In this document: in pieces, positions 5,322 to 46,217 of the stretch
Position numbering within the stretch: the stretch's first letter is position 1
How the letters are laid out: every line of letters starts with the position of its first letter
NCBI GenBank assembly: GCA_012512805.1
Contig: JAAZDN010000075.1
Coordinates: 1 to 56,441 of the forward strand
Source of the DNA: Erysipelothrix sp.
GTDB taxonomy: Bacteria > Bacillota_I > Bacilli_A > Erysipelotrichales > Erysipelotrichaceae
Direction: 5' to 3'
DNA: 56,441 nucleotides
Position numbers and translations under genes: made by a program
The notes under the pieces: model-generated
Database searches by the model: none
What the model was told of the DNA's origin: nothing
Seen by the model: the letters and a program-made list of their open reading frames with translations, nothing else

Positions 5322-5360
5322 TAGCAGTTTTATGTTATACTAAAAAGAGGGGTGATCTTT

Positions 5361-6848: not shown

Positions 6849-8147
6849 ATGCGTTTTGTGGATATTATAGAAAAGAAAAAGAATGGTGAATCATTAAGTA
6901 CAGAAGAGATCAATTTTTGGATTGATGGCTTAATGGACAAATCTGTAAAAGATTATCAAACAACAGCCTTACTCATGGCCATAGTTTTAAAAGGGATGGA
7001 TACTCGTGAGACATCTGATCTAACAATGGCAATGTTAAATAGTGGATCAATTATTGATCTGTCATCCATTGAAGGGATTAAAGTAGATAAACATTCAACA
7101 GGTGGAGTCGGTGATAAATCAACAATGGTCTTATCACCAATGGCCGCAGCCAATCATGCAAAGGTTGCGAAAATGTCAGGACGAGGATTAGGACATACAG
7201 GCGGTACGCTTGATAAGTTAGAATCTATTCCAGGATATAACGTATTTTTAACACGTGAACAATTTATTGATCAAGTCAACAATATTGGTATTGCCTTACT
7301 TGGACAAACAGGTGAAAGTGTACCTGCTGATAAGACTATTTATGCCCTACGCGATGTTACCGCAACGGTTGATGCAATGCCATTAATTGCTGCAAGTATT
7401 ATGTCTAAGAAATTAGCATCAGGATCAGATACGATCTTACTTGATGTTAAATACGGTGATGGTGCCTTTATGGAAACAAAAGAAAAGGCGATTGAACTCG
7501 CTACAATAATGATCAACATTGGAGAGCATTTAAATAAGAATGTTCGAGCAATGATTACAAATATGAACGAACCGCTCGGCAATGCAATTGGAAACAGCTT
7601 AGAAATAATTGAGTCCATTGAAACGCTGAAAGGAAAGGGTCCAGCGGATCTTTATGAACTATGTAGTGAAAGTGCCGCAATCATGTTAACGCAGGCAGGG
7701 CTCAGTGAAAATGTTGAGGAAGGTTTAAAACAAATAGCACAATCAATTGAAGATGGTAGTGCCCTAAATAAACTTCGTGAACTTATTGATGCACAAGGTG
7801 GAGACAGTCGTGTTGTCGATGATTATTCAGTGTTTACTCCTGCGAAATATGTCACAACATTGAAATCACCACAAAGTGGATACATCAAAACAATTCATGC
7901 TTCAAATCTTGGAAAACTTGCAATGGAACTTGGAGCAGGACGTGCTACAGCTGAAGACAGTATTAATTTTGCGGTTGGACTTGTCCTTGATGGAAAAATT
8001 AGTGACTACCGAAGTACCCAAGATAATTTAATAACTGTGTATCATGATGCACCTTTAACTGACAATTGGCTAAATAAACTGTATAATAGTTATGAGTTTG
8101 ATTTAAACCCAGTTGAAAAAGCACCAATTATTCATACTGTCCTTTAA
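6849..8147 (+). CDS. pdp: Pyrimidine-nucleoside phosphorylase
   Basis: 432 aa with the DKHSTGGVGDK motif and typical length. Confidence 0.9.
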   Translation: MRFVDIIEKKKNGESLSTEEINFWIDGLMDKSVKDYQTTALLMAIVLKGMDTRETSDLTMAMLNSGSIIDLSSIEGIKVDKHSTGGVGDKSTMVLSPMAAANHAKVAKMSGRGLGHTGGTLDKLESIPGYNVFLTREQFIDQVNNIGIALLGQTGESVPADKTIYALRDVTATVDAMPLIAASIMSKKLASGSDTILLDVKYGDGAFMETKEKAIELATIMINIGEHLNKNVRAMITNMNEPLGNAIGNSLEIIESIETLKGKGPADLYELCSESAAIMLTQAGLSENVEEGLKQIAQSIEDGSALNKLRELIDAQGGDSRVVDDYSVFTPAKYVTTLKSPQSGYIKTIHASNLGKLAMELGAGRATAEDSINFAVGLVLDGKISDYRSTQDNLITVYHDAPLTDNWLNKLYNSYEFDLNPVEKAPIIHTVL

Positions 8148-8176
8148 TCAAACACAGTGAGAGGGGATTTGATGAC

Positions 8177-8902
8177 ATGAAATTTGAAGTAGAAATCGAT
8201 GAATTTGAAGGACCACTTGATTTAATGTTGCATCTCATCTCAAAACAAGAACTAGATTTATTTGATCTGGATATTGTAGAATTAACGAACCAATATATTA
8301 CGTATATTAATAAAGCAATTACGATTCAACTGGAAGTTGCGAGTGAGTATTTAACGATGCTTGCAACGCTCATTGAATATAAAAGTCGTAAACTATTACC
8401 AAAAGAAGTCGAAAAAATGGAAGCAGACTACGAAGAAGACCCCCATGCGATCCTTGTGAAACGCTTGCTCGAGTATCAACAATTTAAAGATGCGAGTGAG
8501 AAGTTAGAGGCGCTATACATGGAGCGTTTAATGCAGTTTTCCACTTCGATGTCACCTATTGTTGAGCGTTTTGCTGAAGATGTAGAAACGCTACCTTTAG
8601 AAGGTGATGTCCTTGACTTATTTAAGGCGATGGAACGTGTCATGCAAAAAATAACGCTCGATAATCCTTTTCAATCACGCATCGCGACCAAAGAAATTAG
8701 TGTCGATGATCGGATTGTAGTGATTACCGAGCGCTTTAAAACGTTCAAGGACTCCTTTAGTTTTAGTGAGATAGTGAATGATTCTCAAGATATACATGTC
8801 TTTATTGTAAGTTTCTTAGCTATTTTGGATTTGATTCGATTAAATTTATTAACGTATGTGCTTGATGATCAAAATGAAATATGGGTAAGGTGGAGTGAAT
8901 AA
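8177..8902 (+). CDS. scpA: Segregation and condensation protein A (kleisin)
   Basis: 241 aa. The N-terminal FEGPLDLMLHLI motif is typical of ScpA, and scpB follows directly. Confidence 0.9.
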   Translation: MKFEVEIDEFEGPLDLMLHLISKQELDLFDLDIVELTNQYITYINKAITIQLEVASEYLTMLATLIEYKSRKLLPKEVEKMEADYEEDPHAILVKRLLEYQQFKDASEKLEALYMERLMQFSTSMSPIVERFAEDVETLPLEGDVLDLFKAMERVMQKITLDNPFQSRIATKEISVDDRIVVITERFKTFKDSFSFSEIVNDSQDIHVFIVSFLAILDLIRLNLLTYVLDDQNEIWVRWSE

Positions 8903-9444
8903 TGGAAGATAAACTAATACAAATATTAGAAGGCATTATTTTTGTCAACGGTGATGAAGGGATTGATAGCGATAGCCTCGTCAATCTTTTAGAAGTGGAT
9001 CGACAAAAGGTGTATGATGCACTTGAAGCACTAAGGCTACGTTATCAAGATGAAGCCTATGGTATTGAACTTGTTCACTACGGTGGGATGTTTAAATTTG
9101 TTTCAAAGGAAAGTGTATATCCATACATTCAAAAACTCTTTCAAGTAACAAAGAAAAACACCTTATCACCAGCTGCCTTAGAGACCTTAGCTATTATTGC
9201 CTATAAACAACCCATTACTCGGGTTGAAATTGAAGAAATTCGTGGTGTAGGAAGTGATGCGATGTTACGTCGCTTAAGTTTACGCAACTTAATTGAAGAA
9301 GTAGGACGAGCAGACAGTCCTGGGATGCCGATTTTATATGGGGTAACGAGTGAGTTCTTAGACATATTTAAACTATTAAGTATTGACGAACTTCCTGATT
9401 TACCAAACTATGATGGACAGATGGAGATGGATTTATATGAGTGA
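8902..9444 (+). CDS. scpB: Segregation and condensation protein B
   Basis: 180 aa with LETLAIIAYKQPITRVEIEEIRGV and a TAATG overlap with scpA. Confidence 0.9.
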   Translation: MEDKLIQILEGIIFVNGDEGIDSDSLVNLLEVDRQKVYDALEALRLRYQDEAYGIELVHYGGMFKFVSKESVYPYIQKLFQVTKKNTLSPAALETLAIIAYKQPITRVEIEEIRGVGSDAMLRRLSLRNLIEEVGRADSPGMPILYGVTSEFLDIFKLLSIDELPDLPNYDGQMEMDLYE

Positions 9445-10171
9445 TAAAATTAGATTACAAAAAGCAATTGCGGAAAGTGGATATTGTTCACGCCGTAAAG
9501 CTGAACAGTTAATGCTTGATAATAAGGTTAAAGTAAATGGAAATATTGTTAATGAATTAGGATTTAAGGTCGGACCTAAAGATCAAATCGAAGTGAATAA
9601 CATCTTACTTGAAAAAGAAGAGCATGTTTACTATTTGATTAACAAACCAAAACAAGTTTTAAGCAGTGTTAGTGATGATCGTGGTCGTGAAGTCATCGTA
9701 GATTACATCGATGAACAACGAAGAATATTCCCAGTTGGTCGTCTTGATTATGATACAACCGGACTTTTAATCTTAACGAATGATGGTGAATTTTCAAATG
9801 CAATGATTCATCCAAAGTTTGAAATGTCAAAAGTATATGATGTTGTCCTTGATAAAATTGTAACGGTCTCAATGATTAAGCAACTTGAATCAGGAATTGA
9901 ACTTGATGGATTTAAAACTATACCAACACGTGTGAAAATCCGTAACTATGATAAGAATAAGCAAATGACAAATTTAACGATTACGCTTCGTGAAGGACGC
10001 AATCGCCAAATTAAGCGAATGTTTGAAGCACTTGGTGTTACCGTAGTACGTTTACACCGTAAACAATTTGGATTCTTAACCTTAGATGGTTTAGATATTA
10101 ATGAATATCGCCGTTTAAAACCCTTTGAAGTGAAGAAATTAATGCAAGCTGCACAGGTAGGTGAGCGATAA
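9437..10171 (+). CDS. rluB: Pseudouridine synthase, RsuA/RluB family, with an S4 domain
   Basis: Contains RLQKAIAESGYCSRRKAE (S4) and the catalytic GRLDYDTTGLLILTNDG motif. The start is moved to ATG 9437 (MSDKIRLQ); the track start at 9383 adds an implausible leader that overlaps scpB. Confidence 0.88.
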   Translation: MSDKIRLQKAIAESGYCSRRKAEQLMLDNKVKVNGNIVNELGFKVGPKDQIEVNNILLEKEEHVYYLINKPKQVLSSVSDDRGREVIVDYIDEQRRIFPVGRLDYDTTGLLILTNDGEFSNAMIHPKFEMSKVYDVVLDKIVTVSMIKQLESGIELDGFKTIPTRVKIRNYDKNKQMTNLTITLREGRNRQIKRMFEALGVTVVRLHRKQFGFLTLDGLDINEYRRLKPFEVKKLMQAAQVGER

Positions 10172-10563
10172 TGTTAAATAAAATTAAGAACTATTTAAGA
10201 TACAGTTATGGCTTTGATCTCTTATCAAAACATCTTTATTCACTCGGACTCATATTTCTATTAACGGCAATTGTAACACGCATAAATATCTTTCGATTTG
10301 TTGCGGTATTTGTTCTGATCATAAGTATGATGAGAACACTATCACATAAGCGTCAAGCACGACTTCGTGAATTAGCATTGTATACGCGCATGATACGAAA
10401 CACAAAGGTCAAATTTAATATACTGAGATTGAATCTTTTTGATCGTCAGTATAAATATATTGCTTGTAAAACGTGTATGAAACAAATGCGAGTACCACGC
10501 AAACAAGGGAATATTGTGATAACATGTCCAAATTGTCAAAGTAAATACGAAACGCGTTCATAA
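10171..10563 (+). CDS. Membrane protein with a C-terminal CxxC...CxxC zinc ribbon (hypothetical)
   Basis: 130 aa with two hydrophobic helices, then CKTC...CPNC. It is coupled to rluB by a TAATG overlap. Confidence 0.5.
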   Translation: MLNKIKNYLRYSYGFDLLSKHLYSLGLIFLLTAIVTRINIFRFVAVFVLIISMMRTLSHKRQARLRELALYTRMIRNTKVKFNILRLNLFDRQYKYIACKTCMKQMRVPRKQGNIVITCPNCQSKYETRS

Positions 10564-10581
10564 TATTAAAGTAGGGATAAA

Positions 10582-11343
10582 ATGGAACATTTATTTAAAA
10601 TCTTAAATAAAGAAAATAAGGAATATTTGATTAATGATAAATCACGATTAAAAGATGTCGAACACTACAATAAACAATGGCAAAAACAAGGCTTAACGAT
10701 TAAGGTTGATAGTGATTTTCGCTACTTTGATTTTATGCTTCAAAAAACAAGTTTCGACAATATGCAAACAATCATGAATACATATTTTGAAATTAAAGAG
10801 GAATTAAGAGAAATATGGGATATTGTTGAGTATAAGGAAAGACACTTTCTTCTCTATCAACAACTCAATCCAATCATTGAGAAACTGACGCCTTTTTATC
10901 GCGGCGAAAAACGATTGTTTATCACATATTTTGATGAACTCATTAACGCCTATTATGATCATGATATGTTAATGTTTGATAATGATAATTTCAGAAAGTA
11001 TTTGTATCATTATGAGTCGCTTGTTGTATCGAATCAATATGGCATTCTGCCATATGAGAGTGGATATGTTGATGTTGACGTAATTGTAGGTGATGATCAT
11101 AATTTTGTCATTTATATGCATGAGACTAAACGTTTTTATTGGAGACAGGTTCGTGATGATCAGCCCATCGATTTAAGTTTTGGTCTTGCATTTCAAATTA
11201 ATATGCGTCAAATACAAGATATTATTACCATAATTCGATCACATAAGAAAGATGAGCTTATTCACTATCTCATTGAAGAACAGCTTATTTATCCAAGTAT
11301 TAAAAAGCAAATTGTAAAGTTATTAGAAAAGGGTAGGGATTAA
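10582..11343 (+). CDS. Hypothetical protein
   Basis: 253-aa ORF with SD GTAGGGA upstream. I recognise no motif. Confidence 0.4.
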   Translation: MEHLFKILNKENKEYLINDKSRLKDVEHYNKQWQKQGLTIKVDSDFRYFDFMLQKTSFDNMQTIMNTYFEIKEELREIWDIVEYKERHFLLYQQLNPIIEKLTPFYRGEKRLFITYFDELINAYYDHDMLMFDNDNFRKYLYHYESLVVSNQYGILPYESGYVDVDVIVGDDHNFVIYMHETKRFYWRQVRDDQPIDLSFGLAFQINMRQIQDIITIIRSHKKDELIHYLIEEQLIYPSIKKQIVKLLEKGRD

Positions 11344-11345
11344 TT

Positions 11346-12812
11346 ATGGTGAATAATCCACAAACACTAAAAACACTCTTTAATATAGAGAGTTCAGTCA
11401 TCATCAATGAGTTAGTTACTGATTCTCGAAAAAAGAGTCAAAACTCTATCTTTTTTTGTGTGCAAGGTATTGCGAATGATGGCCACAAATTTATAGAAGA
11501 TGCGATTGCTAATGGAGCGGTATGTATTGTCCATTCTATGCCACTTACAAACGCTGTTGAAGGAATACACTACATTTTAGTTGACGATGTTTTAAGTGAA
11601 CTCAATCGAGTGGTAAATATCTTTTACAAACATCCTAGTGAAAAGTTAGACGTCTTTGCGATAACAGGTACGAATGGAAAAACGAGTGTGAGCAGGATCA
11701 TTAGCGATATGTTAAATCATGAAGTAAATACTGGCTACATTGGTACGATTAATATTGCCTATAACAATCGTGAAATTACCGCAAACTATACGACACCAGA
11801 AGTTATCGATTTACATCATGTCATGAATGATATGGTCAACGATAATGTTAAGGCCTTAGCCATCGAAGTGTCCAGCCATTCGATCGTACAACGCCGTGTT
11901 GAAGCTTTGGCCTATGATTATGCAATCTTTACTAACTTAACACACGAGCACTTAGACTATCATGGGACTATTGAAAACTACTTTGCGGCGAAAGCACAGC
12001 TATTTGAACATTTGAATGAGGATCAAGTAGCAATTATTAATATTGATGATGAGTATGGACTAAAATTAATGGACTATGATATTAAACATAAAATATCATA
12101 TGCTATTGATAAAGAAGCTGATTATCAAGCGATCAATGTTGTATATGGCATTAATGATACACAATTTGATGTCTTATATAAGGGTGAGATTTATCCTTTT
12201 GTTACAAATCTTGTTGCAAAATTTAACGTTTCTAATTTATTAGCAGCCATTGCAGCACTCCATCACTATGGTATAAGTATGATAAATCTTCAAGCTTATG
12301 CTAAAATGATTAAGCAAATTAGTGGACGTGTTGAGAAGATTAGTTTTAATGATCGCTTCCAAGTTATTGTCGATTATGCGCATACACCCGATGGTTTCTT
12401 AAAACTCTTTACCTATGCTAAAGACATTGCGAAAGATCATCGTGTTATTAGTGTATTTGGTAGTGCGGGTGAACGAGATATTTTAAAACGCAGTATTCTA
12501 GGAGAAATTGCTGATAAGTATAGTGATATGATTATCTTAACAGCTGATGATCCTCGTAAGGAAAATGTTATGGATATTTCAAAGCAAATCGCTGAAAAAA
12601 TCAGACAAAACTATATTGTAATAGAAAACCGATATGATGCAATATATCAGGCGATAGAACTTGCGAATACCGGAGACATTGTCTTAGTACTCGGTAAGGG
12701 AAATGACCAGTATATGGCCCTGCAAAATGGGAAAGAACCGTACATAGGTGATGTCGAAATTGTAAAAGAAATATTAGAAGAATATTTAGATAAGGAGCAA
12801 AATTATGAATAA
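11346..12812 (+). CDS. murE: UDP-N-acetylmuramoyl-L-alanyl-D-glutamate ligase (MurE); amino-acid specificity not assigned
   Basis: 488 aa with the GTNGKTS P-loop, a DYAHTPDG-type motif and TADDPR where DAP-type enzymes have DNPR. Confidence 0.88.
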   Translation: MVNNPQTLKTLFNIESSVIINELVTDSRKKSQNSIFFCVQGIANDGHKFIEDAIANGAVCIVHSMPLTNAVEGIHYILVDDVLSELNRVVNIFYKHPSEKLDVFAITGTNGKTSVSRIISDMLNHEVNTGYIGTINIAYNNREITANYTTPEVIDLHHVMNDMVNDNVKALAIEVSSHSIVQRRVEALAYDYAIFTNLTHEHLDYHGTIENYFAAKAQLFEHLNEDQVAIINIDDEYGLKLMDYDIKHKISYAIDKEADYQAINVVYGINDTQFDVLYKGEIYPFVTNLVAKFNVSNLLAAIAALHHYGISMINLQAYAKMIKQISGRVEKISFNDRFQVIVDYAHTPDGFLKLFTYAKDIAKDHRVISVFGSAGERDILKRSILGEIADKYSDMIILTADDPRKENVMDISKQIAEKIRQNYIVIENRYDAIYQAIELANTGDIVLVLGKGNDQYMALQNGKEPYIGDVEIVKEILEEYLDKEQNYE

Positions 12813-18515: not shown

Positions 18516-18689
18516 ATGGCAGTTACTGTTAATCAAGACACATGTGCTGGAGTTCAAGCTTGTATTGGCGTATGTCCAACAGGCGCGTTATCAATGAATC
18601 CAGACAATAAAGCAGAATGTGATGCAGAACTTTGCATCGATTGCGGCGTATGTATTGAAGTATGCCCAATGCAAGCAATCAGCTTCTAG
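18516..18689 (+). CDS. Small ferredoxin (57 aa) with two Fe-S cluster motifs
   Basis: Not in the ORF track because it is under 60 aa. SD GGAGG precedes MAVTVNQDTCAGVQACIGVCP...CIDCGVCIEVCP. One motif is canonical (CxxCxxCxxxCP) and one is atypical (Cx5Cx3CP), which resembles a 7Fe-type ferredoxin. Confidence 0.8.
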   Translation: MAVTVNQDTCAGVQACIGVCPTGALSMNPDNKAECDAELCIDCGVCIEVCPMQAISF

Positions 18690-20479: not shown

Positions 20480-22549
20480 ATGAAATTTAGTAAACGATTT
20501 TTTCTTTTGCTACTGACAATGACTTTATTTTTAAGTCCAACTGTGTTAAATGTCAGTGCAGCATCAGCTGATAGTAAAAATTTTTATTATCCATACAAAC
20601 GACTTACACGGACAAATTGATCCTAAAGTTCAAGAATTGGCATACCTCACAACATACTACAAACAGCATGGTGATATTTTATTAGATGCTGGGGACGCGT
20701 CACAAGGTCTTCCAATAAACAATATTTCTGAAGGTGCTGAAATGGGGTGTTTAATGAGTGAGATGGGATACAATGCGATGACGATTGGTAATCATGAATT
20801 TGACTACACACTCAACCATGTTATTGATCCTAACCAAGATGGTTTCTTCAAATCATCAACTGCAATTACCAAACTGGCGAGTAATGTATATTATGAAGGT
20901 ACAGAAAATAATGTCTTTGAACTAAGTAAGATTGAAATGATTAAGGGAATTCAATTTAGTATGTTTGGACTTGCTACACCTGAAACGAAGACAAAGGCAG
21001 ACCCTCGTAACAGTAGCGGTATTGAATTTAGAGATCCAATTGATGCACTAAGATGTGAAATTAATAAATCTGAACATAATGACTCAAAATACTTTATTAT
21101 TCTTGAACACTTAGGGGATGATCCGGTGACAAAAGAAGAGTGGAGAGGCGATACTTTAGCAAATACTTTAGCTACAGATCCTGATTTTGTTGGAAAGAAG
21201 TTTATCGTCATTGATGGTCACTCTCATTCAGAATATGCAAACGGTGAAAAATACGGAAGTAATGTAATTTATGGACAGACAAAAGGGACATTAGAAACCT
21301 TCGGACAAATTACTATTGATTTATCGAATTTCGAAGCATCTGAGGCTAAAACAATAAAAATGCGTGCACAATATGCCTTAACAGAAACAATGAAGGCCTA
21401 TACTACTGATCCAACGATTGTTGCGAAACTTAAGGATATAAATGATGCATTCGAACTTGCGACATCAAAGGTTGTTCTGCCTAACTTAATGGTTGATCTT
21501 AATGGGGAACGTGCTGATGTCCGTACGGGTGAAACCAATTTAGGAAACTTAATATCAGATTCAATGTTTGAGTATACAACGAATACATTTTCAGTAAAAC
21601 CTGACCTTGCGGTTATGAACGGTGGAGGAATCAGAGCATCAATTAAGCCGGGATCTGTAAGTATAAAAGAAATCATTACAACAATGCCCTATGGTAACCG
21701 TGTTGTTCAAATTGATGTTTTAGGTTCTGACATTTATAAGATGTTTGAACACGGACTTAAGGCTCCAATTGCCTTTGATCCAGAAGGAAATATGCTCTTT
21801 GATGAAAATGGTCAACCAAAATTATCACAAGATCCTTCGATCCTTCACGTATCTGATACGGTCAAATTAAAGTTTGATCCACGTCGTGCTGCAGGAGATC
21901 GAATCACAAGTTTAGAAATTTTAGATCAAGACACACAGCAATTTGAAATCGTTGATTTAAATCGTACATATAAACTCGTAACACTTGAATTCTTAGCAGT
22001 AGGTGGAGATGGCTTTACGATGTTAAGTGGAGCGCGTCAAGAGGGGAAAACAGATTCTGATATCTTTGCAGATCACTTTGAGTTAAATACGATTGACTGG
22101 ACTAAATATGCTCAAGATGCACCAAAGCGTGTTGCACCATTAAGTTTTGCAAATCTAGATGTTACAAAAACATACTTAGCATCACTTAAAAGTGCAAACA
22201 CAGCACTCACAAATACGAAATTCACAAAAGCATACGCGATGTATTGGCAGTTGTTCTTGCTGAATATGAAGCAATAACAAACAAGGTTAAAGGAGTTGGA
22301 GACGATAAGCTCGTTATCAATGCAGAGTATTCAACAGCACTTGTTGCAATCAATGAGGCAGTTTCAAATCTAGTTAAAGAAGTTGAAAAACCTGTTGAAC
22401 CATCTGATACAAATGAGAGTGCCACTGATAGACCAGATGTAAACACTGGTATTCATCAAGACTATCCACTATTTGGACTTGGACTTTCAATCATCAGTCT
22501 TGCTGGATATGTACACCTTAGAAAACGTAAAATGACAGCTGAAAATTAG
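20480..22549 (+). pseudogene. Cell-surface 5'-nucleotidase / 2',3'-cyclic-nucleotide phosphodiesterase (UshA/CpdB-like) broken by two frameshifts
   Basis: The signal peptide MKFSKRFFLLLLTMTLFLSPTVLNVSA/AS (frame of 20480) stops at 20618-20620. The catalytic body (IIHTNDLHG, GNHEFD, GHSH) runs in the frame of 20550-22277. The C-terminal sorting-signal segment (DVNTG, hydrophobic helix, RKRK) is in a third frame, 22244-22549. Confidence 0.8.
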
Positions 22550-23715: not shown

Positions 23716-25005
23716 ATGTCTTTAATATTTTCAAAAATGCAAAAACATATTGATGGCTTTAAAAGTCTAACGGCAAACAAAAATGTCTTAGATGTAAATG
23801 ACGTTGCTCAAGTATTTATTCCATTAGCGAATGGGATGAGCACCGCTGTTGAATTAAAGGTCAATGTTGGAGATAGAGTAAAAGTAGGGAGTTTGATTGG
23901 ACATCGTAATGATTTCTTTTACGTGCCAATTTTTTCAAGTGTATCTGGAACTGTTGTTGCGATTGAAAAACGAACACATGGAGCCGGACAAATTGATCAC
24001 GTTGTAGTTGAGAATGACTTTAAGTTTGAACAGGCTGAATTAGATACGATTAATTATGAAACAGCTTCACGAGAAGAACTTGTTGAATTTGTCAAAAACA
24101 AAGGGATTGTTGGATGTGGGGGAGCTGGCTTCCCAACATATGTTAAATATCAAAAGCCAGAAGGTATTAATAAGGTTATTATTAATGCTGTTGAATGTGA
24201 ACCATTCATTACTGCAGACTATAAAGAAATTGAAGATAACGTCCGTTACTTAATGACCGGAGTACTTGCTATGCAAAAGATGGCAGAAGCAAAAGAAGTC
24301 GTTATTGCAATTAAAACAGGTAAAAAACTTGTCACTGATATTATGAATAAAGCATTACCAAATGCGAGTGTTTCAGTTGTAGAAGTACCTGATGCATATC
24401 CAATGGGTTGGGAAAGAACATTAATTCGTCATTTAGAGAAAAAAGAATATGAAAATATTCCATCTGAAATAGGCTTAATTGTTAACAACTCAACGACAGC
24501 AATTTCACTCGGTATGGCAATGGAAACAGGGATGCCAATTGTTAATAAATTTGTAACAGTAAGTGGAGATGCTTTAAAAGATCCAGTAAACGTTAATGTT
24601 TTAGTCGGAACGCCAGTCAGTAAATTACTTGAAATTACAAAATTAAATCGTGATGAAGTCGTACTCATTAATGGTGGACCAATGATGGGTAACTCTATGG
24701 AAACAGATGAGTTTGTCATTACACCAAACACTAATGCGATTACAGTAATGGCAGAAGTTGTTACTGAAGCAATTTCATGTTTAAGATGTGGTTCTTGTAG
24801 TGACCACTGTCCAGCAGGTTTACAGCCTGTTCGAATTATGGAAGCATATAAGAGTCAAGATTGGGATGAAGTACGTAAGCTAAGAGCGGATAAGTGTATT
24901 GAATGTGGATTATGTTCATACGTATGTCCTTCTAAAATTGAAGTTTCTAACCAAGTAATTCTTGCGAAAAGAACGATCGCAAGTCTTGATAAAAATAGGA
25001 GGTAA
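23716..25005 (+). CDS. rnfC: Rnf complex subunit C (NADH-binding, 2x[4Fe-4S])
   Basis: Contains GGAGFPT, CLRCGSCSDHCP and CIECGLCSYVCP. ATG 23716 is preferred (9 nt after SD GAAGGGG); the track TTG at 23707 abuts the SD. An extended -10 TGATATAAT lies at 23682-23690. Confidence 0.9.
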   Translation: MSLIFSKMQKHIDGFKSLTANKNVLDVNDVAQVFIPLANGMSTAVELKVNVGDRVKVGSLIGHRNDFFYVPIFSSVSGTVVAIEKRTHGAGQIDHVVVENDFKFEQAELDTINYETASREELVEFVKNKGIVGCGGAGFPTYVKYQKPEGINKVIINAVECEPFITADYKEIEDNVRYLMTGVLAMQKMAEAKEVVIAIKTGKKLVTDIMNKALPNASVSVVEVPDAYPMGWERTLIRHLEKKEYENIPSEIGLIVNNSTTAISLGMAMETGMPIVNKFVTVSGDALKDPVNVNVLVGTPVSKLLEITKLNRDEVVLINGGPMMGNSMETDEFVITPNTNAITVMAEVVTEAISCLRCGSCSDHCPAGLQPVRIMEAYKSQDWDEVRKLRADKCIECGLCSYVCPSKIEVSNQVILAKRTIASLDKNRR

Positions 25006-25008
25006 GTT

Positions 25009-26502
25009 GTGAAGTATATTACACGAATAAGACCAAATTTCCGTGATCGCATTTCTACAATGCGCATCATGCTTGATTTAACACTTGGATTGCTCATCTT
25101 AACAATCGTAGCAGCTGTATTTTATAGCCAAACTGTTAGTTTAAGTGTTGGACTACGCGTTGTCTACGTTGTAGCAACAGCTGTTATTACAAATATTGTT
25201 TTAGAACTATTATTTGGAATGGCTCGTAAGAAAACCATAAAACAAGTTTTCAAACAACAATTCCCATGGGTAACGGGATTAATCTTAGCCTTAGCCGTTC
25301 CGGTTACAACTAACTTATACGTTGTCGCAATGACGACTGCAATTTCTGTTATATTTGGAAAAATAGTTTACGGTGGTTTTGGACAAAACGTCTTTAACCC
25401 AGCGGGTATTGGACGTGCGATTGTATTCTCAAGTTTTGCACGACCAGTTGTTGAAAGTATTACAAAAACTAGTGACATTTTTACAAGTGCTACACCAGCC
25501 AACCTAATGAACTCATTTGGATGGTTACCAACTGTAGAAGCTTTTAATTCGAAAGCCTTTGCTCATATTGATTTAAAAGGATTACTCTTTGGAAATCACT
25601 TCGGTACAATCGGTGAAACCTTTGCAATTGTAATTATTTTAGTAGCAATGTATTTAATTGCTCGCCGTGTTATTGATTGGAGAATTCCAGTTGTTTATGT
25701 TGGAACACTCTTTATTGCAGCATGGATTATTGGAGCAGTAAATGGTTTAGGTATTTGGTATCCATTAACATTCGTCTTAAGTGGTGGAGTCCTCTTTGGA
25801 GCAGTCTTCATGTTAACAGATCCTGTTACATGTCCAACCCAAGTAACAGGCCGTGTTGTCTTTGCAATGGGTGCTGCTGTTATTACACTTTTAATTCGAT
25901 TCTTAGCAAATGCACCAGAAGGTGTTGTATTCTCAATCTTAATTATGAATATGTTGACACCATTAATTGAAGATTTCTTAAATGGTCAACAAACACGTAT
26001 GAAAAAACGTTACGTATCAATCGTTGTCTCAATGGTTGTCGTCGTAGGCTTAAGCATTGTTTGGGTTACACAATCCGTTGATGCAGTTGCACCAACACTT
26101 GACTTAGGTGAACAGGTCACATCAGACATTGAAGATGTTGATCGTTATGGACTAACATCAATCGAAAGTAAGGCAGATGGGGCAAATACACTTTATACAG
26201 TCGCAGTTGAAGGATATGGACTACGTGATTCAGAATATCAAAATCCAAAATATCAAGAAAATATTATTGAAGTTGTAGTCGATAGTAACAACATTATTGT
26301 CTCTGCTAAAATGACGCAGTTTGGTGATACTGAAGGTATTGGTGATCTTGTGAATGATGATCTCTACTTTGAAACATTTGTAGGCAAAGATCTCAGTAAG
26401 GCAGATGAAATGTATGATACAGTGTCAACAGCTACGAAAACAAGTTATTCATTTATTCGTGCACTTCGCGCAATAAGTGATGAAATCGGAGGCGACAAAT
26501 AA
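25009..26502 (+). CDS. rnfD: Rnf subunit D with an additional C-terminal TM helix and FMN_bind-like domain
   Basis: The core has SGGVLFGAVFMLTDPVT (the covalent-FMN site region). The protein is 497 aa. After about residue 330 come a hydrophobic helix (RYVSIVVSMVVVVGLSIVWV) and a domain of about 110 aa ending DTVSTATKTS. Confidence 0.88.
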   Translation: MKYITRIRPNFRDRISTMRIMLDLTLGLLILTIVAAVFYSQTVSLSVGLRVVYVVATAVITNIVLELLFGMARKKTIKQVFKQQFPWVTGLILALAVPVTTNLYVVAMTTAISVIFGKIVYGGFGQNVFNPAGIGRAIVFSSFARPVVESITKTSDIFTSATPANLMNSFGWLPTVEAFNSKAFAHIDLKGLLFGNHFGTIGETFAIVIILVAMYLIARRVIDWRIPVVYVGTLFIAAWIIGAVNGLGIWYPLTFVLSGGVLFGAVFMLTDPVTCPTQVTGRVVFAMGAAVITLLIRFLANAPEGVVFSILIMNMLTPLIEDFLNGQQTRMKKRYVSIVVSMVVVVGLSIVWVTQSVDAVAPTLDLGEQVTSDIEDVDRYGLTSIESKADGANTLYTVAVEGYGLRDSEYQNPKYQENIIEVVVDSNNIIVSAKMTQFGDTEGIGDLVNDDLYFETFVGKDLSKADEMYDTVSTATKTSYSFIRALRAISDEIGGDK

Positions 26503-27413
26503 TGAAAAGAACCTTATATTTAGCATTATTCTTAGCAGTAGTTGCGGGCTTAGCGGGTGGACTGTTAACCTTAGTCGACTCTGTAACTCGTGATAAAATT
26601 GCTGAAGCTGAAATTTCAAAAGAATTAGTATACTTAGAAGTGATTTTCCCAGGTGGAACCTTCACCAAAGAAACTGAAAAATTAGAAGGAGCAGCTGGAC
26701 TGCTTGACCTCTATACAGTTGAAGGAAAAGGAACGGTATACAAGGTTGAAGAAACTGGATTTGGTGGAACAATTGTGTATCTCGTCGGTTTTGATACAGA
26801 TCAAAAAATTGTTGGTACTTCAGTGATCAGTCATACTGAAACACCAGGTTTTGGTGATGTTATTGAAACGGATACATTTAGTAGTGCAAACAGCGGTAAA
26901 AAAGCAACTGATCAATTATATATTTCATCTGGAGCAACTGTTTCATCTAAGGCAGTTAACCGTGGTATTTTAGCTGCTGCATCACATCTTTCTGGTGGTG
27001 AACTGGTAGCAGAACCTGAACAGCCAACCTTAGGCGATAAGGTCAGTCTCTCTGATGAAAAATTAAGTAAGTATCCAGCAACCATCGAATCAACAGAAGA
27101 AGATGGAGACAACGTAGTTTATCGTGTTAAAGCTGAAGGATACGGTCTTGTAGCCTCAGAATATCCAAGTCCTGATTATAAAGAAAACCTCTTTGTAATA
27201 ACAATCAATAAAGAAACAAGATCAATTGTCTCAATTGAACTTGAAGAATTTGGAGATACAAAAAATATTGGAGATGTCATTGACAATCCATTATACTTTG
27301 AATTATTTGTAGGTGTTAATTCACTTGACGCAGAAGTTGATACATACTCAAATGCGACGATCACGAGTTATTCACTCTTTAGTGCCATTAACGCGGTCTT
27401 AGCAGATCAATAG
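26502..27413 (+). CDS. rnfG: Rnf subunit G with two FMN_bind domains
   Basis: It has an N-terminal TM helix. The first domain carries the canonical SSGATVSS. The second domain (residues about 171-303) ends DTYSNATITS and is paralogous to the RnfD extension. Confidence 0.88.
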   Translation: MKRTLYLALFLAVVAGLAGGLLTLVDSVTRDKIAEAEISKELVYLEVIFPGGTFTKETEKLEGAAGLLDLYTVEGKGTVYKVEETGFGGTIVYLVGFDTDQKIVGTSVISHTETPGFGDVIETDTFSSANSGKKATDQLYISSGATVSSKAVNRGILAAASHLSGGELVAEPEQPTLGDKVSLSDEKLSKYPATIESTEEDGDNVVYRVKAEGYGLVASEYPSPDYKENLFVITINKETRSIVSIELEEFGDTKNIGDVIDNPLYFELFVGVNSLDAEVDTYSNATITSYSLFSAINAVLADQ

Positions 27414-27423
27414 GGAGGGTACA

Positions 27424-28071
27424 ATGTTTAAAAAAATTAAAGATAGTTTAGTTAACAATAATCCTGTCTTCTCATTATTTTTAGGATTATGTAGTGCCCT
27501 AGCGATTTCATCATCACTTGATAATGCGTTAGGGATGGGAGTTGGAGTCATTGTTGTACTCTTTATGAGTAACACTGTTATTTCATTAATTAGAAAAATT
27601 ACTCCAGACGAAATTAGAATTCCAGTATATATTGTAATTATTGCGGCTTTAACAAAATCACTTGATTTAATGATGGCTGCATATACGCCGATGTTGCACA
27701 GCTCACTTGGTACATTTATTCAACTTATTGCGGTAAACTGTATTATTCTTGGACGAGCTGAAAGTTTCGCATCTAAGAATGGAGTCTTTGCTTCAATGAA
27801 AGATGCATTAACAATAGGACTTGGCTTTACAGTATCACTTGTCTTAATATCAGTTACTCGTGAATTCTTAAGTACGGGTGGTTTGATCTTGAGTAATCCA
27901 TTTACAGGACTTCAAGTTGTTCAATTAGGCTTACCAGAAGCCTTAGCAAGTGATCTTAGTATTACACTCTTTAGAGCGCCTGCTGGAGCCTTCTTCACAT
28001 TTGCACTCTTTGCAGCATTATTTGCCTTTATTGGTGATGATAAGCGTAAACAGAAAGGGGTCTCTAAATAA
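27424..28071 (+). CDS. rnfE: Rnf subunit E
   Basis: 215-aa polytopic membrane protein at the expected position in C-D-G-E-A-B order. It resembles the RnfE/NqrD type (NNPVFSLFLGLCSALA). Confidence 0.88.
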   Translation: MFKKIKDSLVNNNPVFSLFLGLCSALAISSSLDNALGMGVGVIVVLFMSNTVISLIRKITPDEIRIPVYIVIIAALTKSLDLMMAAYTPMLHSSLGTFIQLIAVNCIILGRAESFASKNGVFASMKDALTIGLGFTVSLVLISVTREFLSTGGLILSNPFTGLQVVQLGLPEALASDLSITLFRAPAGAFFTFALFAALFAFIGDDKRKQKGVSK

Positions 28072-28637
28072 TGCATTATTTATCAATTTTCTTTGGAGCA
28101 ATGATTATCGAAAATATTGTTCTTACACGATTCTTAGGACTTTGTCCTTTCTTAGGTGTATCTAAAGATAAGAAGTCAGCGGTCGGAATGGGCTTAGCAG
28201 TAACCTTTGTTATCTTTGTATCTAGTGTCTTATCATATTTCTTAAGTCAAGTATTATCTAAGTATAACATTCAATATTTAGACCTTGTCTTATATATTTT
28301 AATTATTGCGGCATTTGTTCAACTTGTTGAACTCTTCTTAAAAGTTAAGATGCCAACCCTTTATAAGAGTTTAGGAATTTATTTACCACTCATTACAACA
28401 AATTGTGCGGTACTCTATGTTGCACTCACAACAGCTCGTATGAGTGATTTTGTTGAAGTTATCGTTTATTCATTAGGTGTTCCACTTGGATTTATGTTGA
28501 TGCTCTTCTTATTCTCAAGCATTCGTGCACGTTTAAAAGCATCATCTGTACCAAAATACTTTATTGGAAATCCAATTGCCCTAATTACAGCAGGACTTAT
28601 GGCCATTGCCTTTAGCGGTTTAGCAGGAATTATTTAA
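28071..28637 (+). CDS. rnfA: Rnf subunit A
   Basis: 188-aa polytopic protein of RnfA/NqrE type (ENIVLTRFLGLCPFLGVS, LPLITTNCAVL). Confidence 0.88.
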   Translation: MHYLSIFFGAMIIENIVLTRFLGLCPFLGVSKDKKSAVGMGLAVTFVIFVSSVLSYFLSQVLSKYNIQYLDLVLYILIIAAFVQLVELFLKVKMPTLYKSLGIYLPLITTNCAVLYVALTTARMSDFVEVIVYSLGVPLGFMLMLFLFSSIRARLKASSVPKYFIGNPIALITAGLMAIAFSGLAGII

Positions 28638-28780
28638 TGCTAGCAGGCCTTGTTCTAGCACTTATTGGAGGACTTTACGCACTGCTCTATTTTCTAAATG
28701 GACGTGCAAAAATGCCAGAAGGAGTCTCAGTCGTTACCGGATGTTCGATGTGTAATGATGAGCACTGCTCGAGACATTAA
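28637..28780 (+). CDS. 47-aa membrane micro-protein with a C-terminal Cys cluster
   Basis: Not in the ORF track. It has a TAATG overlap with rnfA. The translation is MLAGLVLALIGGLYALLYFLNGRAKMPEGVSVVTGCSMCNDEHCSRH. The architecture (one TM helix, a basic patch, CxxCxxxxC) resembles FeoB-associated Cys-rich membrane proteins. Confidence 0.55.
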   Translation: MLAGLVLALIGGLYALLYFLNGRAKMPEGVSVVTGCSMCNDEHCSRH

Positions 28781-28797
28781 ACGATGATGGAGGATAT

Positions 28798-29109
28798 ATG
28801 TTTATTTATGCTTTAAGTATTATGGTGGGATCAGGTTTAGTTTTAGGTTTTATATTAGGCTTTGCAGCATTTAAACTGCAGGTCATTGAGGATCCGCTCG
28901 TTGAACAACTAACAACTCTTTTACCAGGTATTAACTGTGGTGGTTGTGGCTATGCAGGATGTGAGGCATTTGCTAACGGTATTGTTGATGGTGACGTTAA
29001 AAAGATTTCGCAATGTCGTCCATCAAATGATGAACAAAGATCAAGTATTTCAGAATTATTAAAAAACACCCCAAATCAAAAGGGTGAATTCATTGATATT
29101 AAGATTTAA
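28798..29109 (+). CDS. rnfB: Truncated-format Rnf subunit B: membrane anchor plus a single Fe-S module, no ferredoxin domains
   Basis: 103 aa with a TM helix, then NCGGCGYAGCEAFANGIV...C. The ORF ends in TAA and is followed immediately by a strong terminator, so the short length is encoded rather than an edge artefact. Confidence 0.75.
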   Translation: MFIYALSIMVGSGLVLGFILGFAAFKLQVIEDPLVEQLTTLLPGINCGGCGYAGCEAFANGIVDGDVKKISQCRPSNDEQRSSISELLKNTPNQKGEFIDIKI

Positions 29110-29113
29110 ATTT

Positions 29114-29138
29114 AAAAGCTGAATAATCAGCTTTTTTT
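29114..29138. terminator. Bidirectional terminator between rnfB and alr
   Basis: AAAAGCTGA-ATAA-TCAGCTTTTTTT. It overlaps the alr stop codon. Confidence 0.85.
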
Positions 29139-30763: not shown

Positions 30764-31945
30764 TTATTTTGTTGAATAGTTGTCAAAGTATCCTTGAACA
30801 AGTACAACAGGAGTACCCTTATCACCACTACCACTTGTAAGGTCACAAAGACTTGCCACAAGATCACTAATTTGACGTGGGGTTGTACCTTCAGATAATT
30901 CTTTATCAGCAGATTCCATATCCGTTGTTTCTAAGGTCTCAATGATTGCTTTTGTTAATTGTTCACCGCGAATATCTTTGAATTGATTATCGGCAATATA
31001 CTTAATCTTTATTTCATTAGGTGTACCGCGTAAACCATCTGTAAATGCGACTGCAGATACTGGATCGGCTAACTCCCAAATACCACCTACAGGATCTTTA
31101 AAGGCTCCATCACCATAAACAAGTATTTCAATATTCTTATGTGTCATTGCCTTAAGTTTAACTTGAAGTGCTGCTACAACATCTTCACTTGATCTTGGGA
31201 ATAACTTAATTTCAGAATCTGTTGCCTTATTTGAGCCTAACAGTCCAAAACGTTCATTGTATCCATGTTGATCATTTTCTTCGTTTAAGATTTCTGCGAG
31301 TGTTAATACTCTTTTAACACCTGCGTTTTCTAAGATTTTTTTATCAGCATCACGGGTGTGAATGCTTGCGACAATGACTTGATCAGTATATTTTAAAATA
31401 GCCTTTGGATCATTTGAAAATATAATTTCAATATTATCTGAAATTGATTTATAAAACTCAATATAATCGAGTCCTGTGAAAAGATGTTTTGTATCGTATC
31501 CAAATGTTTCTCTGAATTCACTTTCAGTTAAAACATCTGAAAAGGGGTTTACATTCTTTTCAAGAATTAATTCATTGCTCACAAGACGGTTTCCAACTTC
31601 ATCTGTTGGATAACTCAATTGTAAGACAACTTTATTTGCGCCTTTAGCTAAACCTTCTAGTAAGACGGAAAAACGGTTACGTGATTGAATCGGGAATATA
31701 ATGCCTAATACATCGGTATTAAACTTTTTTCTGACGTCATTTGCGATATCTTCGGTTGTAGCATAGTTACTTTCAGTACGAGCAACGAGTGCTTCTGTAA
31801 TTCCGACAATATCTCCATCAGCGAGTGTAATGTTCTCTGCTTCTACTGCAGCCATTAAACTTTCTGAAACGGTACTGATTAAATCATCTTTTCTTTGCAT
31901 AATTGGAAGTCTAATTCCAAATGCTTTTGTTGTTGTTTTTCTCAT
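30764..31945 (-). CDS. CofE-like (F420-0:gamma-glutamyl ligase family) protein, long Firmicutes form
   Basis: 393 aa. The N-terminal pattern (IRLPIMQRKDDL...ADGDIVGITEALVARTE) and GDGAFKDP are typical of the F420_ligase fold. A minus-strand terminator ACTCAAG/CTTGAGT lies at about 30733-30757. Confidence 0.55.
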   Translation of the reverse strand: MRKTTTKAFGIRLPIMQRKDDLISTVSESLMAAVEAENITLADGDIVGITEALVARTESNYATTEDIANDVRKKFNTDVLGIIFPIQSRNRFSVLLEGLAKGANKVVLQLSYPTDEVGNRLVSNELILEKNVNPFSDVLTESEFRETFGYDTKHLFTGLDYIEFYKSISDNIEIIFSNDPKAILKYTDQVIVASIHTRDADKKILENAGVKRVLTLAEILNEENDQHGYNERFGLLGSNKATDSEIKLFPRSSEDVVAALQVKLKAMTHKNIEILVYGDGAFKDPVGGIWELADPVSAVAFTDGLRGTPNEIKIKYIADNQFKDIRGEQLTKAIIETLETTDMESADKELSEGTTPRQISDLVASLCDLTSGSGDKGTPVVLVQGYFDNYSTK

Positions 31946-45114: not shown

Positions 45115-45157
45115 GAAAAACTAAAATTCATCTTAATATTATATTGAGGTGTTAATT

Positions 45158-45523
45158 ATGAAGGGAGTAGTATTCAGTACTACTTTTTTTGTACTCATAT
45201 TTGTGATCTTTCTTAGTTTTAGTAATTATATTTACTTTGATCATAACCGGAGCTTGATTAATCGATCCTTTAAATCTGCACTTATTCAAACAGCAGAAAT
45301 TCAAAGTGAGTCTCAAGATAACTTTGATACGATTCTGGATACGTTTTTATTAATCATTGAAGATAATCTCCCCAAAGGATTTGATTATTCATTTAGCTTA
45401 TATGGCTATCATCAAGATCCTTTACTTATTCGCATTAAGCTGAGTGCGAAAAGTAAGCATGGAAATTATCATTATGAGATGGAAGAAACAATAGTACAAA
45501 AGGAGGCAGAAACAAATGAATAA
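45158..45523 (+). CDS. Tad-locus small membrane-anchored protein (candidate minor pilin, TadE/F-like)
   Basis: 121 aa. MKGVVFSTTFFVLIFVIFLSF has an N-terminal hydrophobic helix right after MKG. It is the first gene of the coupled operon. Confidence 0.45.
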   Translation: MKGVVFSTTFFVLIFVIFLSFSNYIYFDHNRSLINRSFKSALIQTAEIQSESQDNFDTILDTFLLIIEDNLPKGFDYSFSLYGYHQDPLLIRIKLSAKSKHGNYHYEMEETIVQKEAETNE

Positions 45524-46217
45524 AAATAATGTGAAAATTGGATTAGGTTTAATTGGATTATTTGTTGTTAATTTCTTAGTCTTTAAAATCGCAGTAAGCC
45601 GTGAGATTGGTTTAATCGAAATTCCAGTAGTAAAGCAAGTCATTTTTCCAAGAACTAAAATAGAGGATTCAATGATTAAAATGTTAGAAGTCCCATCAAG
45701 TTTTGTATCAGATGCAATGTATACCGATAAAGAAGATATATTAAATCTTTACAGTGACATTCAAACGATGATACCAATAGGTTCACCATTTTATAAAAGT
45801 GTGCTCTTTAATGAGTCTGAACTTCCAGATTATCCTAAAATTCTATTGAAGGAAAATCAAGTTGTCTATACCTTAGATACAAATCTTGTGAAACTATCTG
45901 GAAATAGTATTGTGGTAAATCAAAAAGTTGATTTAATTACGACCTATCGAAATAAGAACGAGTCACCCCTTGTTGATGTTTTAGTATCATCGGTACGTGT
46001 AATCGGGGTTAAAGATAAAAAAGGTATTGATGTCTTGAATCCTAAGAGTTCAGGGACGCCCCATCTAGTCCTCTTAGCGCTCGATAGTGATTTACTTGCA
46101 ATTGTTAGAGCAGCAGATGAAATTGCATCCTTAGAATTGTTTGCACATTCAAAAGTTTTAAATGAAGAATCTGTTTTGAATACTGAGGCCAAAATTTTGG
46201 AGGTTATTAATGAGTAA
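45516..46217 (+). CDS. CpaB/RcpC-like pilus assembly protein (SAF plus beta-clip domains)
   Basis: 233 aa with an N-terminal TM helix. The periplasmic-type domain has the CpaB-like pattern (VV.Q.I...T.I...M...EVP.....). It overlaps the upstream gene by 8 nt. Confidence 0.6.
   Translation: MNKNNVKIGLGLIGLFVVNFLVFKIAVSREIGLIEIPVVKQVIFPRTKIEDSMIKMLEVPSSFVSDAMYTDKEDILNLYSDIQTMIPIGSPFYKSVLFNESELPDYPKILLKENQVVYTLDTNLVKLSGNSIVVNQKVDLITTYRNKNESPLVDVLVSSVRVIGVKDKKGIDVLNPKSSGTPHLVLLALDSDLLAIVRAADEIASLELFAHSKVLNEESVLNTEAKILEVINE

Follow-up and report, generated by a model that had tools for sequence, protein, structure and literature searches.

Many anaerobes rely on the Rnf complex as their main energy-coupling redox pump. 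Here we describe an rnf operon of an Erysipelothrix sp. genome (GenBank assembly GCA_012512805.1, contig JAAZDN010000075.1, positions 1 to 56,441); this whole stretch of 56,441 nucleotides (nt) is referred to below as the window. Its seven genes form a genuine operon for an Rnf membrane redox pump, in which RnfB is cut down to a single iron-sulfur module, a small cysteine-rich protein (X) is encoded between rnfA and rnfB, and RnfD and RnfG carry additional domains of the FMN_bind family (FMN, flavin mononucleotide). We read it, with a probability of roughly 0.55, as encoding a functional, lineage-specific pump that couples ferredoxin (or flavodoxin) to nicotinamide adenine dinucleotide (NAD+, or NADH when reduced), with two independent elaborations, one on the input side and one on the outer side of the membrane. 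The most original result is the strict pairing of the minimal ("mini") RnfB with X across a large branch of Bacillota, and the modular flavin extension of RnfD and RnfG comes next.

To our knowledge, all Rnf complexes that have been solved or studied biochemically have a multi-cluster RnfB together with a single-flavin RnfD and RnfG. A branch of Bacillota that takes in Erysipelotrichales, Izemoplasmatales, Anaeroplasma and relatives, with common gut and oral genera among them, uses a one-cluster RnfB and an unnamed seventh protein instead, so the entry of ferredoxin into the pump needs rethinking there.

Core subunits, the minimal RnfB and protein X

The seven open reading frames (ORFs) occupy 23716-29109 on one strand (+), spaced by -1 to 17 nt, in the order rnfC-D-G-E-A-X-B. 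The six named genes were assigned with Pfam and NCBIfam, and a first-pass annotation made from the sequence alone had correctly recognised an operon in the clostridial order rnfC-D-G-E-A-B. All the defining features of Rnf that were tested were found except the polyferredoxin domain of RnfB. RnfC is, as judged from its domains, the NAD(H)-binding subunit, with a predicted FMN/NADH domain and two [4Fe-4S] motifs: Pfam finds RnfC_N, Complex1_51K (E = 3.4e-34), SLBB and two Fer4 domains (Fer4 dicluster), the TIGR01945 rnfC profile scores 340.8 bits, and the two CxxCxxCxxxCP motifs lie at C358-368 and C397-407. C23 and C106 of RnfE and C25 and C112 of RnfA make up the complete four-cysteine set for the intramembrane [2Fe-2S] cluster, a ligand role known from solved Rnf/Nqr structures (reviewed in PMC12174285). 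According to the same review, the core path runs from the small cluster of RnfB to the RnfA/E [2Fe-2S] cluster, then to the FMN of RnfG, the FMN of RnfD, RnfC and finally NAD+. The ligands of this entire path are present here (the cluster cysteines of RnfB, the RnfA/E quartet, the flavinylation threonines of RnfG and RnfD, and RnfC), and by sequence the core ferredoxin-to-NAD+ route appears intact.

RnfB is where the operon departs most clearly on the input side. The protein of 103 amino acids (aa) consists of a transmembrane (TM) helix, a small [4Fe-4S] domain and a conserved 30-aa tail. Pfam finds only PF04060 ("FeS", residues 42-75, E = 1.6e-12) and no Fer4, which agrees with the earlier description of RnfB as reduced to one Fe-S module, and the TIGR01944 rnfB profile scores 74.3 bits against a cut-off of 68.7. 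All of 20 aligned mini RnfBs keep the cluster ligands C47, C50, C55 and C73, and a GGAGG ribosome-binding site lies 7 nt upstream of the gene. The sequence aligns to residues ~10-88 of solved RnfB chains (174-333 aa) and then ends; no C-terminal polyferredoxin domain was found in it with Pfam/NCBIfam or by alignment to the solved chains, nor in the 68 related operons described below. In the canonical complex, the retained piece is a flexible single-cluster domain that touches RnfA/E, and the lost C-terminal part, with two to seven clusters, is the ferredoxin acceptor (PMC12174285). The tail of the mini RnfBs (residues 74-103) has the consensus …EYLNxTPGPDGxxxxV after the last ligand, with an invariant G96, and might serve for docking.

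A scan of species-representative genomes gave 80 loci with a related RnfD, whose operons were annotated using the window proteins as queries. A mini RnfB of 91-130 aa was found in 68 operons, and in 67 of these an X homologue sits in the gap between rnfA and rnfB. These operons carry the labels Erysipelotrichaceae, Solobacterium, Anaerorhabdus, Beduini, Coprobacillaceae and Sharpea, and also Izemoplasmatales, Anaeroplasma, Haloplasmataceae and some "Defluviitaleaceae" metagenome-assembled genomes (MAGs). A long RnfB (285 aa; Fusobacteria and other Bacillota) was found in six operons, all with overlapping rnfA and rnfB and none with X. In a related mollicute Rnf cluster described in PMC11122141, six rnf genes are listed and locus tags are skipped within the cluster, which would fit an extra gene having been overlooked there. 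One uncultured Tenericutes locus has, besides its complete operon (6646-11393), a second partial set of rnfE, rnfA and a 99-aa rnfB at 170-1838, ~5 kb upstream, and the RnfB is minimal in both sets.

X itself is a protein of 47 aa with an N-terminal helix, basic residues and a tail that holds C36-x2-C39-x4-C44 and a histidine. N21, P27, C36, C39 and C44 are invariant in 36 relatives, and the family consensus is a helix followed by YxLNKKTPxPEGCE…CxGCxxxxCxH. The first-pass annotation had pointed to a Cys-rich micro-protein in this operon, and the protein is real and conserved; its cysteine content has to be corrected to three Cys and one His, since the fourth, upstream Cys of most relatives is missing in the window and in its closest relatives. 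The stop codon of rnfA overlaps the ATG of X (TAATG) and AGGA stands upstream of X, which together suggest translational coupling of the two genes. A profile search returned 253 homologues, all labelled "hypothetical" and none with a Pfam domain. When 1.84 billion representatives were searched exhaustively with HMMER, 424 clusters came up, and the best 150 of the 424 were all stand-alone proteins of 49-95 aa, with no fused form among them. Sampled family members on long contigs lay between rnfA and an rnfB of ~100 aa in three of three cases, and the gene context was rnf in all 70 cases examined. The family appears to have been passed over in published operon descriptions and merits a name.

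The basic residues that follow the helix of X suggest that its Cys tail is probably cytoplasmic, like the RnfB domain. Judging by its sequence, the CxxCxxxxC motif, usually accompanied by the fourth Cys, is a probable binding site for a metal or an Fe-S centre. Comparison of X with Pfam, NCBIfam, the sequences of the Protein Data Bank (PDB) and the mini-RnfB profile gave no convincing family assignment. The spacing of the motif is that of the FeS domain of RnfB (CGGCGYAGC), and in a profile-profile comparison the helix and motif of X were aligned to the anchor and motif of RnfB with 54% probability, an alignment that is suggestive, not conclusive, of X being a piece derived from RnfB.

A different role for X would be that of a maturation factor like NqrM, which delivers iron to the RnfA/E or RnfB cluster and then leaves the complex. 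NqrM reportedly has one TM helix and conserved cysteines and is encoded beside its operon. For X, though not for the rest of the complex, we regard this role as possible but doubtful. Five of the 36 X family members match the FeoB-associated Cys-rich family PF12669 below threshold (best E = 0.0058; X of the window not among them), and the mini-RnfB operon L077 manages without X, which speaks for such a role. However, none of the 36 matches the Pfam NqrM profile (PF04400) at E <= 1, X follows the type of RnfB rather than the RnfA/E cluster that is common to every Rnf, and the profile alignment likewise leads to the RnfB anchor and motif.

A gene for a clostridial-type ferredoxin (57 aa, two [4Fe-4S] clusters) lies at 18516-18689 (+), 5 kb upstream of rnfC, and its product is a candidate electron-transfer partner for the minimal RnfB. 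The first cluster motif of this ferredoxin is oddly spaced (CxxxxxCxxxCP), and the gene is not at the equivalent place in the locus of another Erysipelothrix MAG (L085).

Predicted flavin modules of RnfD and RnfG and possible electron routes

The FMN_bind domains (PF04205) were scanned one by one against the Pfam gathering score of 22 bits. The first-pass annotation had claimed two added FMN_bind domains, one fused to RnfD and one arising by duplication in RnfG, for a total of three plus the core site of RnfD; all three score above 22 bits and keep the flavinylation threonine, and Pfam profile, motif and predicted fold agree on the two added ones. In RnfD the C-terminal Pfam match covers residues 421-488. 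The residues of the flavinylation motifs are conserved in alignments whose homologues reach down to 35-40% identity (Table 1). AlphaFold models built on homologue alignments have a mean predicted local distance difference test score (pLDDT) of 82.8 for RnfD and 86.7 for RnfG. Each module is modelled as β-β-α-β-β-α…α, with the flavinylation Thr at the N-terminus of the last helix, and RnfG domain 2 appears as a second β-β-α-β-β-α-β-α module with a pLDDT of mostly 75-96. Foldseek matched the core of the RnfD model to solved RnfD chains (7ZC6_D, 9ERI_D and 8AHX_D; target-normalised TM-score 0.73-0.82), with secondary matches to RnfG chains, and the RnfG model to solved RnfG (9ERI_G, 7ZC6_G) and NqrC chains. 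The accessory modules of RnfD and RnfG are 42% identical to one another and 25% identical to the canonical RnfG domain, which marks them as paralogues of one accessory type.

Taken together, the extra modules are, on sequence and modelling grounds, genuine FMN_bind domains that are predicted to face outward and that retain a conserved flavinylation Thr. The core of RnfD is expected to end on the cytoplasmic side, from where the added helix (residues 332-356) should lead the chain across the membrane; hydropathy and AlphaFold are both compatible with an outward location beyond this helix and beyond the RnfG anchor helix. On this basis we infer flavinylation and outward topology for the accessory modules.

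It is very improbable that the extra domains are decaying duplications with neither cofactor nor function. The accessory modules score just 4-5 bits over the Pfam threshold, and at the Gly position their motifs carry other, non-canonical residues, both of which speak for decay. On the other side, the flavinylation Thr, the Ala before it and the Asp hardly vary, if at all, among homologues of 35-70% identity, the modules have been retained and multiplied in many lineages, and their predicted folds are confident. We rejected the reading as dead duplicates on the invariance of the flavinylation residues, and the same conservation argues for a redox role of the modules.

The modules are also widespread. 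A search with the RnfD protein gave 637 homologues at E <= 0.001. Among the 120 listed, the majority have FMN_bind and a length of 450-720 aa; databases label the fused RnfD just "subunit D" and the double RnfG "FMN-binding protein". The architecture is thus common, and it has not been characterised experimentally. Per operon, the count of FMN_bind modules runs from one, which is canonical and typical of Izemoplasmatales, Anaeroplasma and Sharpea, to four, with zero, one, two or three extra modules on RnfD and one, two, three or four on RnfG. The pattern of the window (one extra on RnfD, two on RnfG) is the commonest in its nearer relatives, and D-x-x-[ST]-x-A-[TS] is kept in nearly all accessory modules of the 80 loci. 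Since Izemoplasmatales, Anaeroplasma and Sharpea have the mini RnfB and X together with an unexpanded RnfD and RnfG, the RnfB/X pair and the number of flavin modules appear evolutionarily independent. The first-pass annotation had presented the reduction of RnfB and the gain of flavins as one shift; this does not hold, as 67 of the 68 mini-RnfB operons have X whatever their flavin count. A coordinated rewiring of RnfB loss and flavin gain was accordingly rejected, the two being distributed differently across the phylogeny.

Some relatives have further redox genes next to rnf. In an Erysipelotrichaceae genome (loci L086, 14244-15561, and L088, 6613-7930), a flavodiiron-type protein (Lactamase_B plus flavodoxin) and a rubredoxin are encoded directly after rnfB, and this neighbourhood hints at a link to the detoxification of O2 or NO; the RnfD of this genome has 618 aa with FMN_bind, and two modules are likely from its length. 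In L090 (6568-8607), genes for ApbE, a NusG_II-domain protein and a membrane protein of the Hpre_diP_synt_I family stand directly 3' of rnfB, and RnfD has three FMN_bind modules.

ApbE, the flavin transferase, was looked for in the 56-kb window by Pfam across the context of ~1.3-36.5 kb, among the remaining ORFs of at least 219 aa and with the ApbE of a relative as query, and it was not found. The ORFs at 47157-48023, 50021-50680 and 53834-54511 match neither Pfam nor the relative's ApbE. The earlier remark that the window has no ApbE/FmnB was therefore accurate. In 31 related loci, ApbE is encoded no more than 8 kb from rnf, and since it adjoins rnf there, a redox role of the accessory modules fits. 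A hidden Markov model of FMN_bind, derived from 133 domains, was applied to every ORF in 87 loci, and its only matches were to RnfD, RnfG and one 398-aa protein in a single locus (L059); in the window it matched RnfD and RnfG only. In that locus, from a "Defluviitaleaceae" MAG, the genes for the FMN_bind-like protein and for ApbE lie at 3466-6245, just upstream of rnf. Genes for a possible acceptor (PplA, flavin reductase, iron reductase, Ndh2, EetAB) were found neither in the window nor within 8 kb of rnf in 80 relatives, the L059 protein excepted. Large sets of extracellular (secreted) flavin reductases have been reported for Erysipelotrichaceae (bioRxiv 10.1101/2022.12.26.521950). For a purified protein with three FMNs, which reacts with O2, the midpoint potential is -184 mV (PMC10339131), and with such a potential the flow of electrons from NADH or ferredoxin into modules of this kind would be downhill.

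Under the reading that we prefer, a pump with two separate elaborations, the membrane-anchored single-[4Fe-4S] domain of RnfB would hand electrons to the intramembrane [2Fe-2S] cluster of RnfA/E. With the polyferredoxin docking domain gone, soluble ferredoxin (or flavodoxin) could reach the small RnfB domain directly, and X (47-60 aa) may be an extra subunit or an assembly factor that enables this direct delivery. Because the mini RnfB and X serve lineages that have no accessory flavins, their job must be the ordinary reaction between ferredoxin (or flavodoxin) and NAD+. On the outer side, the accessory modules would be tethered beside the canonical flavins of RnfG and RnfD, through the added helix of RnfD and the appended domain of RnfG. 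Their FMNs might form a short covalent-flavin relay that branches at the RnfG and RnfD FMNs and lets electrons derived from NADH or ferredoxin exit to, or enter from, partners in the cell-wall space, with the core reaction preserved; the secreted flavin reductases of Erysipelotrichaceae are candidate partners. Since the number of accessory modules varies, such a relay would be a side branch or "antenna" and not an obligatory in-line part. Ferredoxin is the presumed partner on the input side, and both the existence and the identity of an external acceptor are presumed as well.

A stronger version of the outward route would make the complex mainly an NADH exporter, with electrons passing from RnfC to RnfD, RnfG, the accessory flavins and an extracellular acceptor, and with RnfB, RnfA and RnfE vestigial or structural. 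In its favour, RnfB lacks the domain that is called the ferredoxin acceptor in a review (PMC12174285), and it fits the presence of three outward FMN_bind modules and the richness of Erysipelotrichaceae in extracellular flavin reductases (bioRxiv 10.1101/2022.12.26.521950). In addition, two-subunit Nqr/Rnf-like systems have been proposed as one-way conduits from NAD(P)H to the outside (PMC8238504, PMC11334425). We nevertheless find this version improbable: the ligands of the RnfB cluster and of the RnfA/E [2Fe-2S] cluster are all retained, the mini RnfB and X are kept across orders even where there are no accessory modules, which leaves only the ferredoxin/NAD+ reaction for them, and a ferredoxin gene is nearby. 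The first-pass annotation had inferred that electrons pass between NADH and the outside instead of purely between ferredoxin and NAD+. An outward branch is reasonable, given the anatomy and the precedent in PMC8238504, and is partly anticipated in the literature; what was overstated is the tie between RnfB loss and flavin gain and the downgrading of the ferredoxin:NAD+ reaction, for which the core ligands are intact and a ferredoxin gene lies 5 kb upstream.

Alternatively, the accessory modules may be internal parts, acting as stepping stones or an electron buffer among the RnfA/E cluster, the RnfG FMN and the RnfD FMN without any external partner, and tuning the kinetics or replacing the large swing of RnfG. 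The modules are tethered directly to both subunits that bear the core periplasmic flavins, acceptor genes are not co-located, and RnfG/NqrC must shift between A/E and D in solved Rnf/Nqr complexes (PMC12174285), so this has some appeal. It is nonetheless unlikely in our view, as the copy number varies from 0 to 3-4 in close relatives with conserved cores, and three tandem modules on RnfD resemble beads on a string, which suggests reach (PMC11334425).

Several points weigh against the two-elaboration reading. Flavinylation in this genome is a prediction, as no ApbE is encoded in the window, and no acceptor gene is co-located in the loci searched. Neither accessory module has the Gly of the motif, which is Thr in RnfD and Asn in RnfG, and in RnfG domain 1 the motif Asp is a Tyr, both here and in an independent assembly (P0241), against Asp in all 21 aligned relatives. 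These replacements could cut flavin occupancy, although Gly-position and Asp substitutions have been reported to lower flavinylation only partly (PMC12052999). On the input side, metal binding by X and its persistence in the mature complex are predictions from sequence, one mini-RnfB operon (L077) does without X, and the association of X with the mini RnfB may reflect a single evolutionary event instead of a functional link. The literature yielded no experimental work on any member of this Rnf subtype; an incomplete literature search also returned nothing specific on a truncated RnfB, an RnfD-FMN_bind fusion, a seventh gene, or Rnf in Erysipelotrichaceae/Acholeplasma.

If the flavins are an outlet, quinone-free Gram-positive bacteria would be able to pass electrons of NADH or ferredoxin straight to extracellular acceptors in an ion-coupled way, which would help to explain how the extracellular reductases of Erysipelotrichaceae are powered. 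The boldest joint version would have the mini RnfB and X as an unrecognised two-piece electron-input module, in which X would hold a separate Fe-S or metal centre at the surface of the membrane, and at the same time the flavin string as a quinone-independent respiratory hub that feeds extracellular flavin reductases, with export coupled to ion pumping. As a whole, we hold this combination to be a long shot.

Coordinates and neighbouring genes

The operon is closed by a terminator-like hairpin, and the next gene, for alanine racemase, is convergent to it. The G+C content of the window is ~34%, and its closest genome matches are uncultured "Erysipelothrix sp." MAGs, whose RnfD is 64-69% identical. 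The host encodes MurE, alanine racemase and an LCP-family protein and thus has a cell wall.

Table 1. Positions in the window of the rnf genes, of the domains and predicted flavinylation sites of RnfD and RnfG, and of the hairpin that follows
Feature	Position (nt)	Strand	Details
rnfC	23716..25005 (alternative upstream TTG at 23707)	+	429 aa from ATG; 432 aa from TTG
rnfD	25009-26502	+	497 aa
RnfD core (residues 1-335)	25009..26013	+	PF03116 E = 2.8e-74; NQR2_RnfD_RnfE residues 7-325
RnfD core site DIFTSAT, T162	25492-25494	+	T162 at least 90% conserved (76 homologues)
RnfD added 11th TM helix (residues 332-356)	26002..26076	+	Hydropathy peak 336-354; AlphaFold helix, pLDDT 84-95
RnfD accessory FMN_bind module (residues 375-497)	26131..26499	+	PF04205 27.5 bits
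RnfD accessory site DTVSTAT, T476	26434-26436	+	D470 and T476 at least 90% conserved, A475 invariant (76 homologues)
rnfG	26502-27413	+	303 aa
RnfG anchor and canonical FMN_bind domain 1	26502..27005	+	PF04205 54.0 bits; TIGR01947 E = 1e-20
RnfG domain 1 site YISSGAT, T146	26937-26939	+	G144, A145 and T146 invariant (22 homologues)
RnfG accessory FMN_bind domain 2 (residues 177-303)	27030..27410	+	PF04205 26.3 bits
RnfG domain 2 site DTYSNAT, T286	27357-27359	+	D280, A285 and T286 invariant (22 homologues)
rnfE	27424-28071	+	PF02508 (Rnf-Nqr) E = 9e-56; NF009070 222 bits
rnfA	28071-28637	+	PF02508 (Rnf-Nqr) E = 1.8e-54; TIGR01943 219 bits
Gene X	28637-28780	+	47 aa; between rnfA and rnfB
rnfB	28798-29109	+	103 aa
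Terminator-like hairpin	29114-29135	+	9-bp stem, then T run; closes the operon

Downstream of rnf, a 393-aa homologue of F420-0:gamma-glutamyl ligase is encoded at 30764-31945 (-; PF01996, E = 2.2e-48). F420 is not expected in Bacillota, and the gene has the same position after rnf in L085. Upstream, at 20550-22549 (+), an ORF for a 5'-nucleotidase/metallophosphatase (575 aa) and a 101-aa ORF overlap, the shorter one ending in a membrane-anchor-like segment. In assembly L081 this region is called as 166 aa plus 474 aa, and a frameshift or an assembly difference may be involved. Farther along, the region 45149-48787 (+) has the appearance of a Tad/Flp-type pilus or secretion cluster, with an RcpC/CpaB-like protein and a T2SSE ATPase, which is followed by two membrane proteins without a significant Pfam match.

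Comparison with known Rnf and flavin-based systems

The canonical Rnf complexes of Acetobacterium woodii (9ERI), Clostridium tetanomorphum (7ZC6) and Azotobacter vinelandii (8AHX) share with the present operon the six subunit families, the clostridial order C-D-G-E-A-B, and an RnfC with the NADH/FMN domain and two [4Fe-4S] motifs. They also share the flavinylation Thr of RnfD and RnfG, the four cysteines of RnfA/E, and an RnfB with an anchor and a small [4Fe-4S] domain. The differences lie in the two elaborated parts. On the input side, canonical RnfB has 174-333 aa and two to seven further clusters, which the 103-aa RnfB here lacks, and a seventh gene, for the Cys-rich micro-protein, lies between rnfA and rnfB here. 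On the outer side, the solved RnfD chains (304-349 aa) are too short for the extension of the 497-aa RnfD, and the solved RnfG chains have 187-207 aa, compared with 303 aa here including a second FMN_bind.

Multi-flavinylated RnfG in RNF clusters was reported by Méheust et al. 2021 in eLife (PMC8238504), who proposed a second pathway to extracytosolic acceptors. An RnfG with more than one FMN_bind domain and the proposed outward function are the same in both cases, and the proteins here likewise have more than one FMN_bind with D-x-x-[ST]-G-A-[ST]-like motifs, the Gly being N or T in the accessory modules. That work is a genomic survey without experiments and, as far as its text was accessible, deals with RnfG only, with no RnfD fusion, minimal RnfB or micro-protein described. 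A 2024 paper described multi-flavinylated proteins as structurally heterogeneous (PMC11334425). Multi-flavinylated RnfG and an outward pathway are therefore already published, whereas the fusion of RnfD with FMN_bind and the conserved pair of X and mini RnfB are apparently unreported.

NqrM and the PF12669 proteins resemble X in being tiny, with a single TM helix and a short Cys-rich tail, and in being encoded beside a metal-dependent membrane system. They differ in that there is no significant sequence match and that the X gene lies within rnf operons, not beside feoB or nqr.

In Listeria monocytogenes, PplA is an outward protein with two FMN_bind domains flavinylated by ApbE/FmnB, which pass electrons beyond the membrane; the likeness extends only to the logic of the cofactors. 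PplA itself is a free lipoprotein supplied by Ndh2, a demethylmenaquinone and EetA/EetB, and the annotated products of the window include none of the Listeria proteins for extracellular electron transfer (PplA, Ndh2, EetA/EetB, quinone synthesis). In the present operon the modules belong to ion-pump subunits, to which they are fused, and for this reason no quinone need be involved. The Rnf of Methanosarcina acetivorans with MmcA also has an added outward multi-cofactor subunit, which is thought to be a second exit for electrons. There, in an archaeon, the cofactors are c-type haems on a separate subunit, whereas in the operon described here they are predicted covalent flavins on modules fused to RnfD and RnfG.

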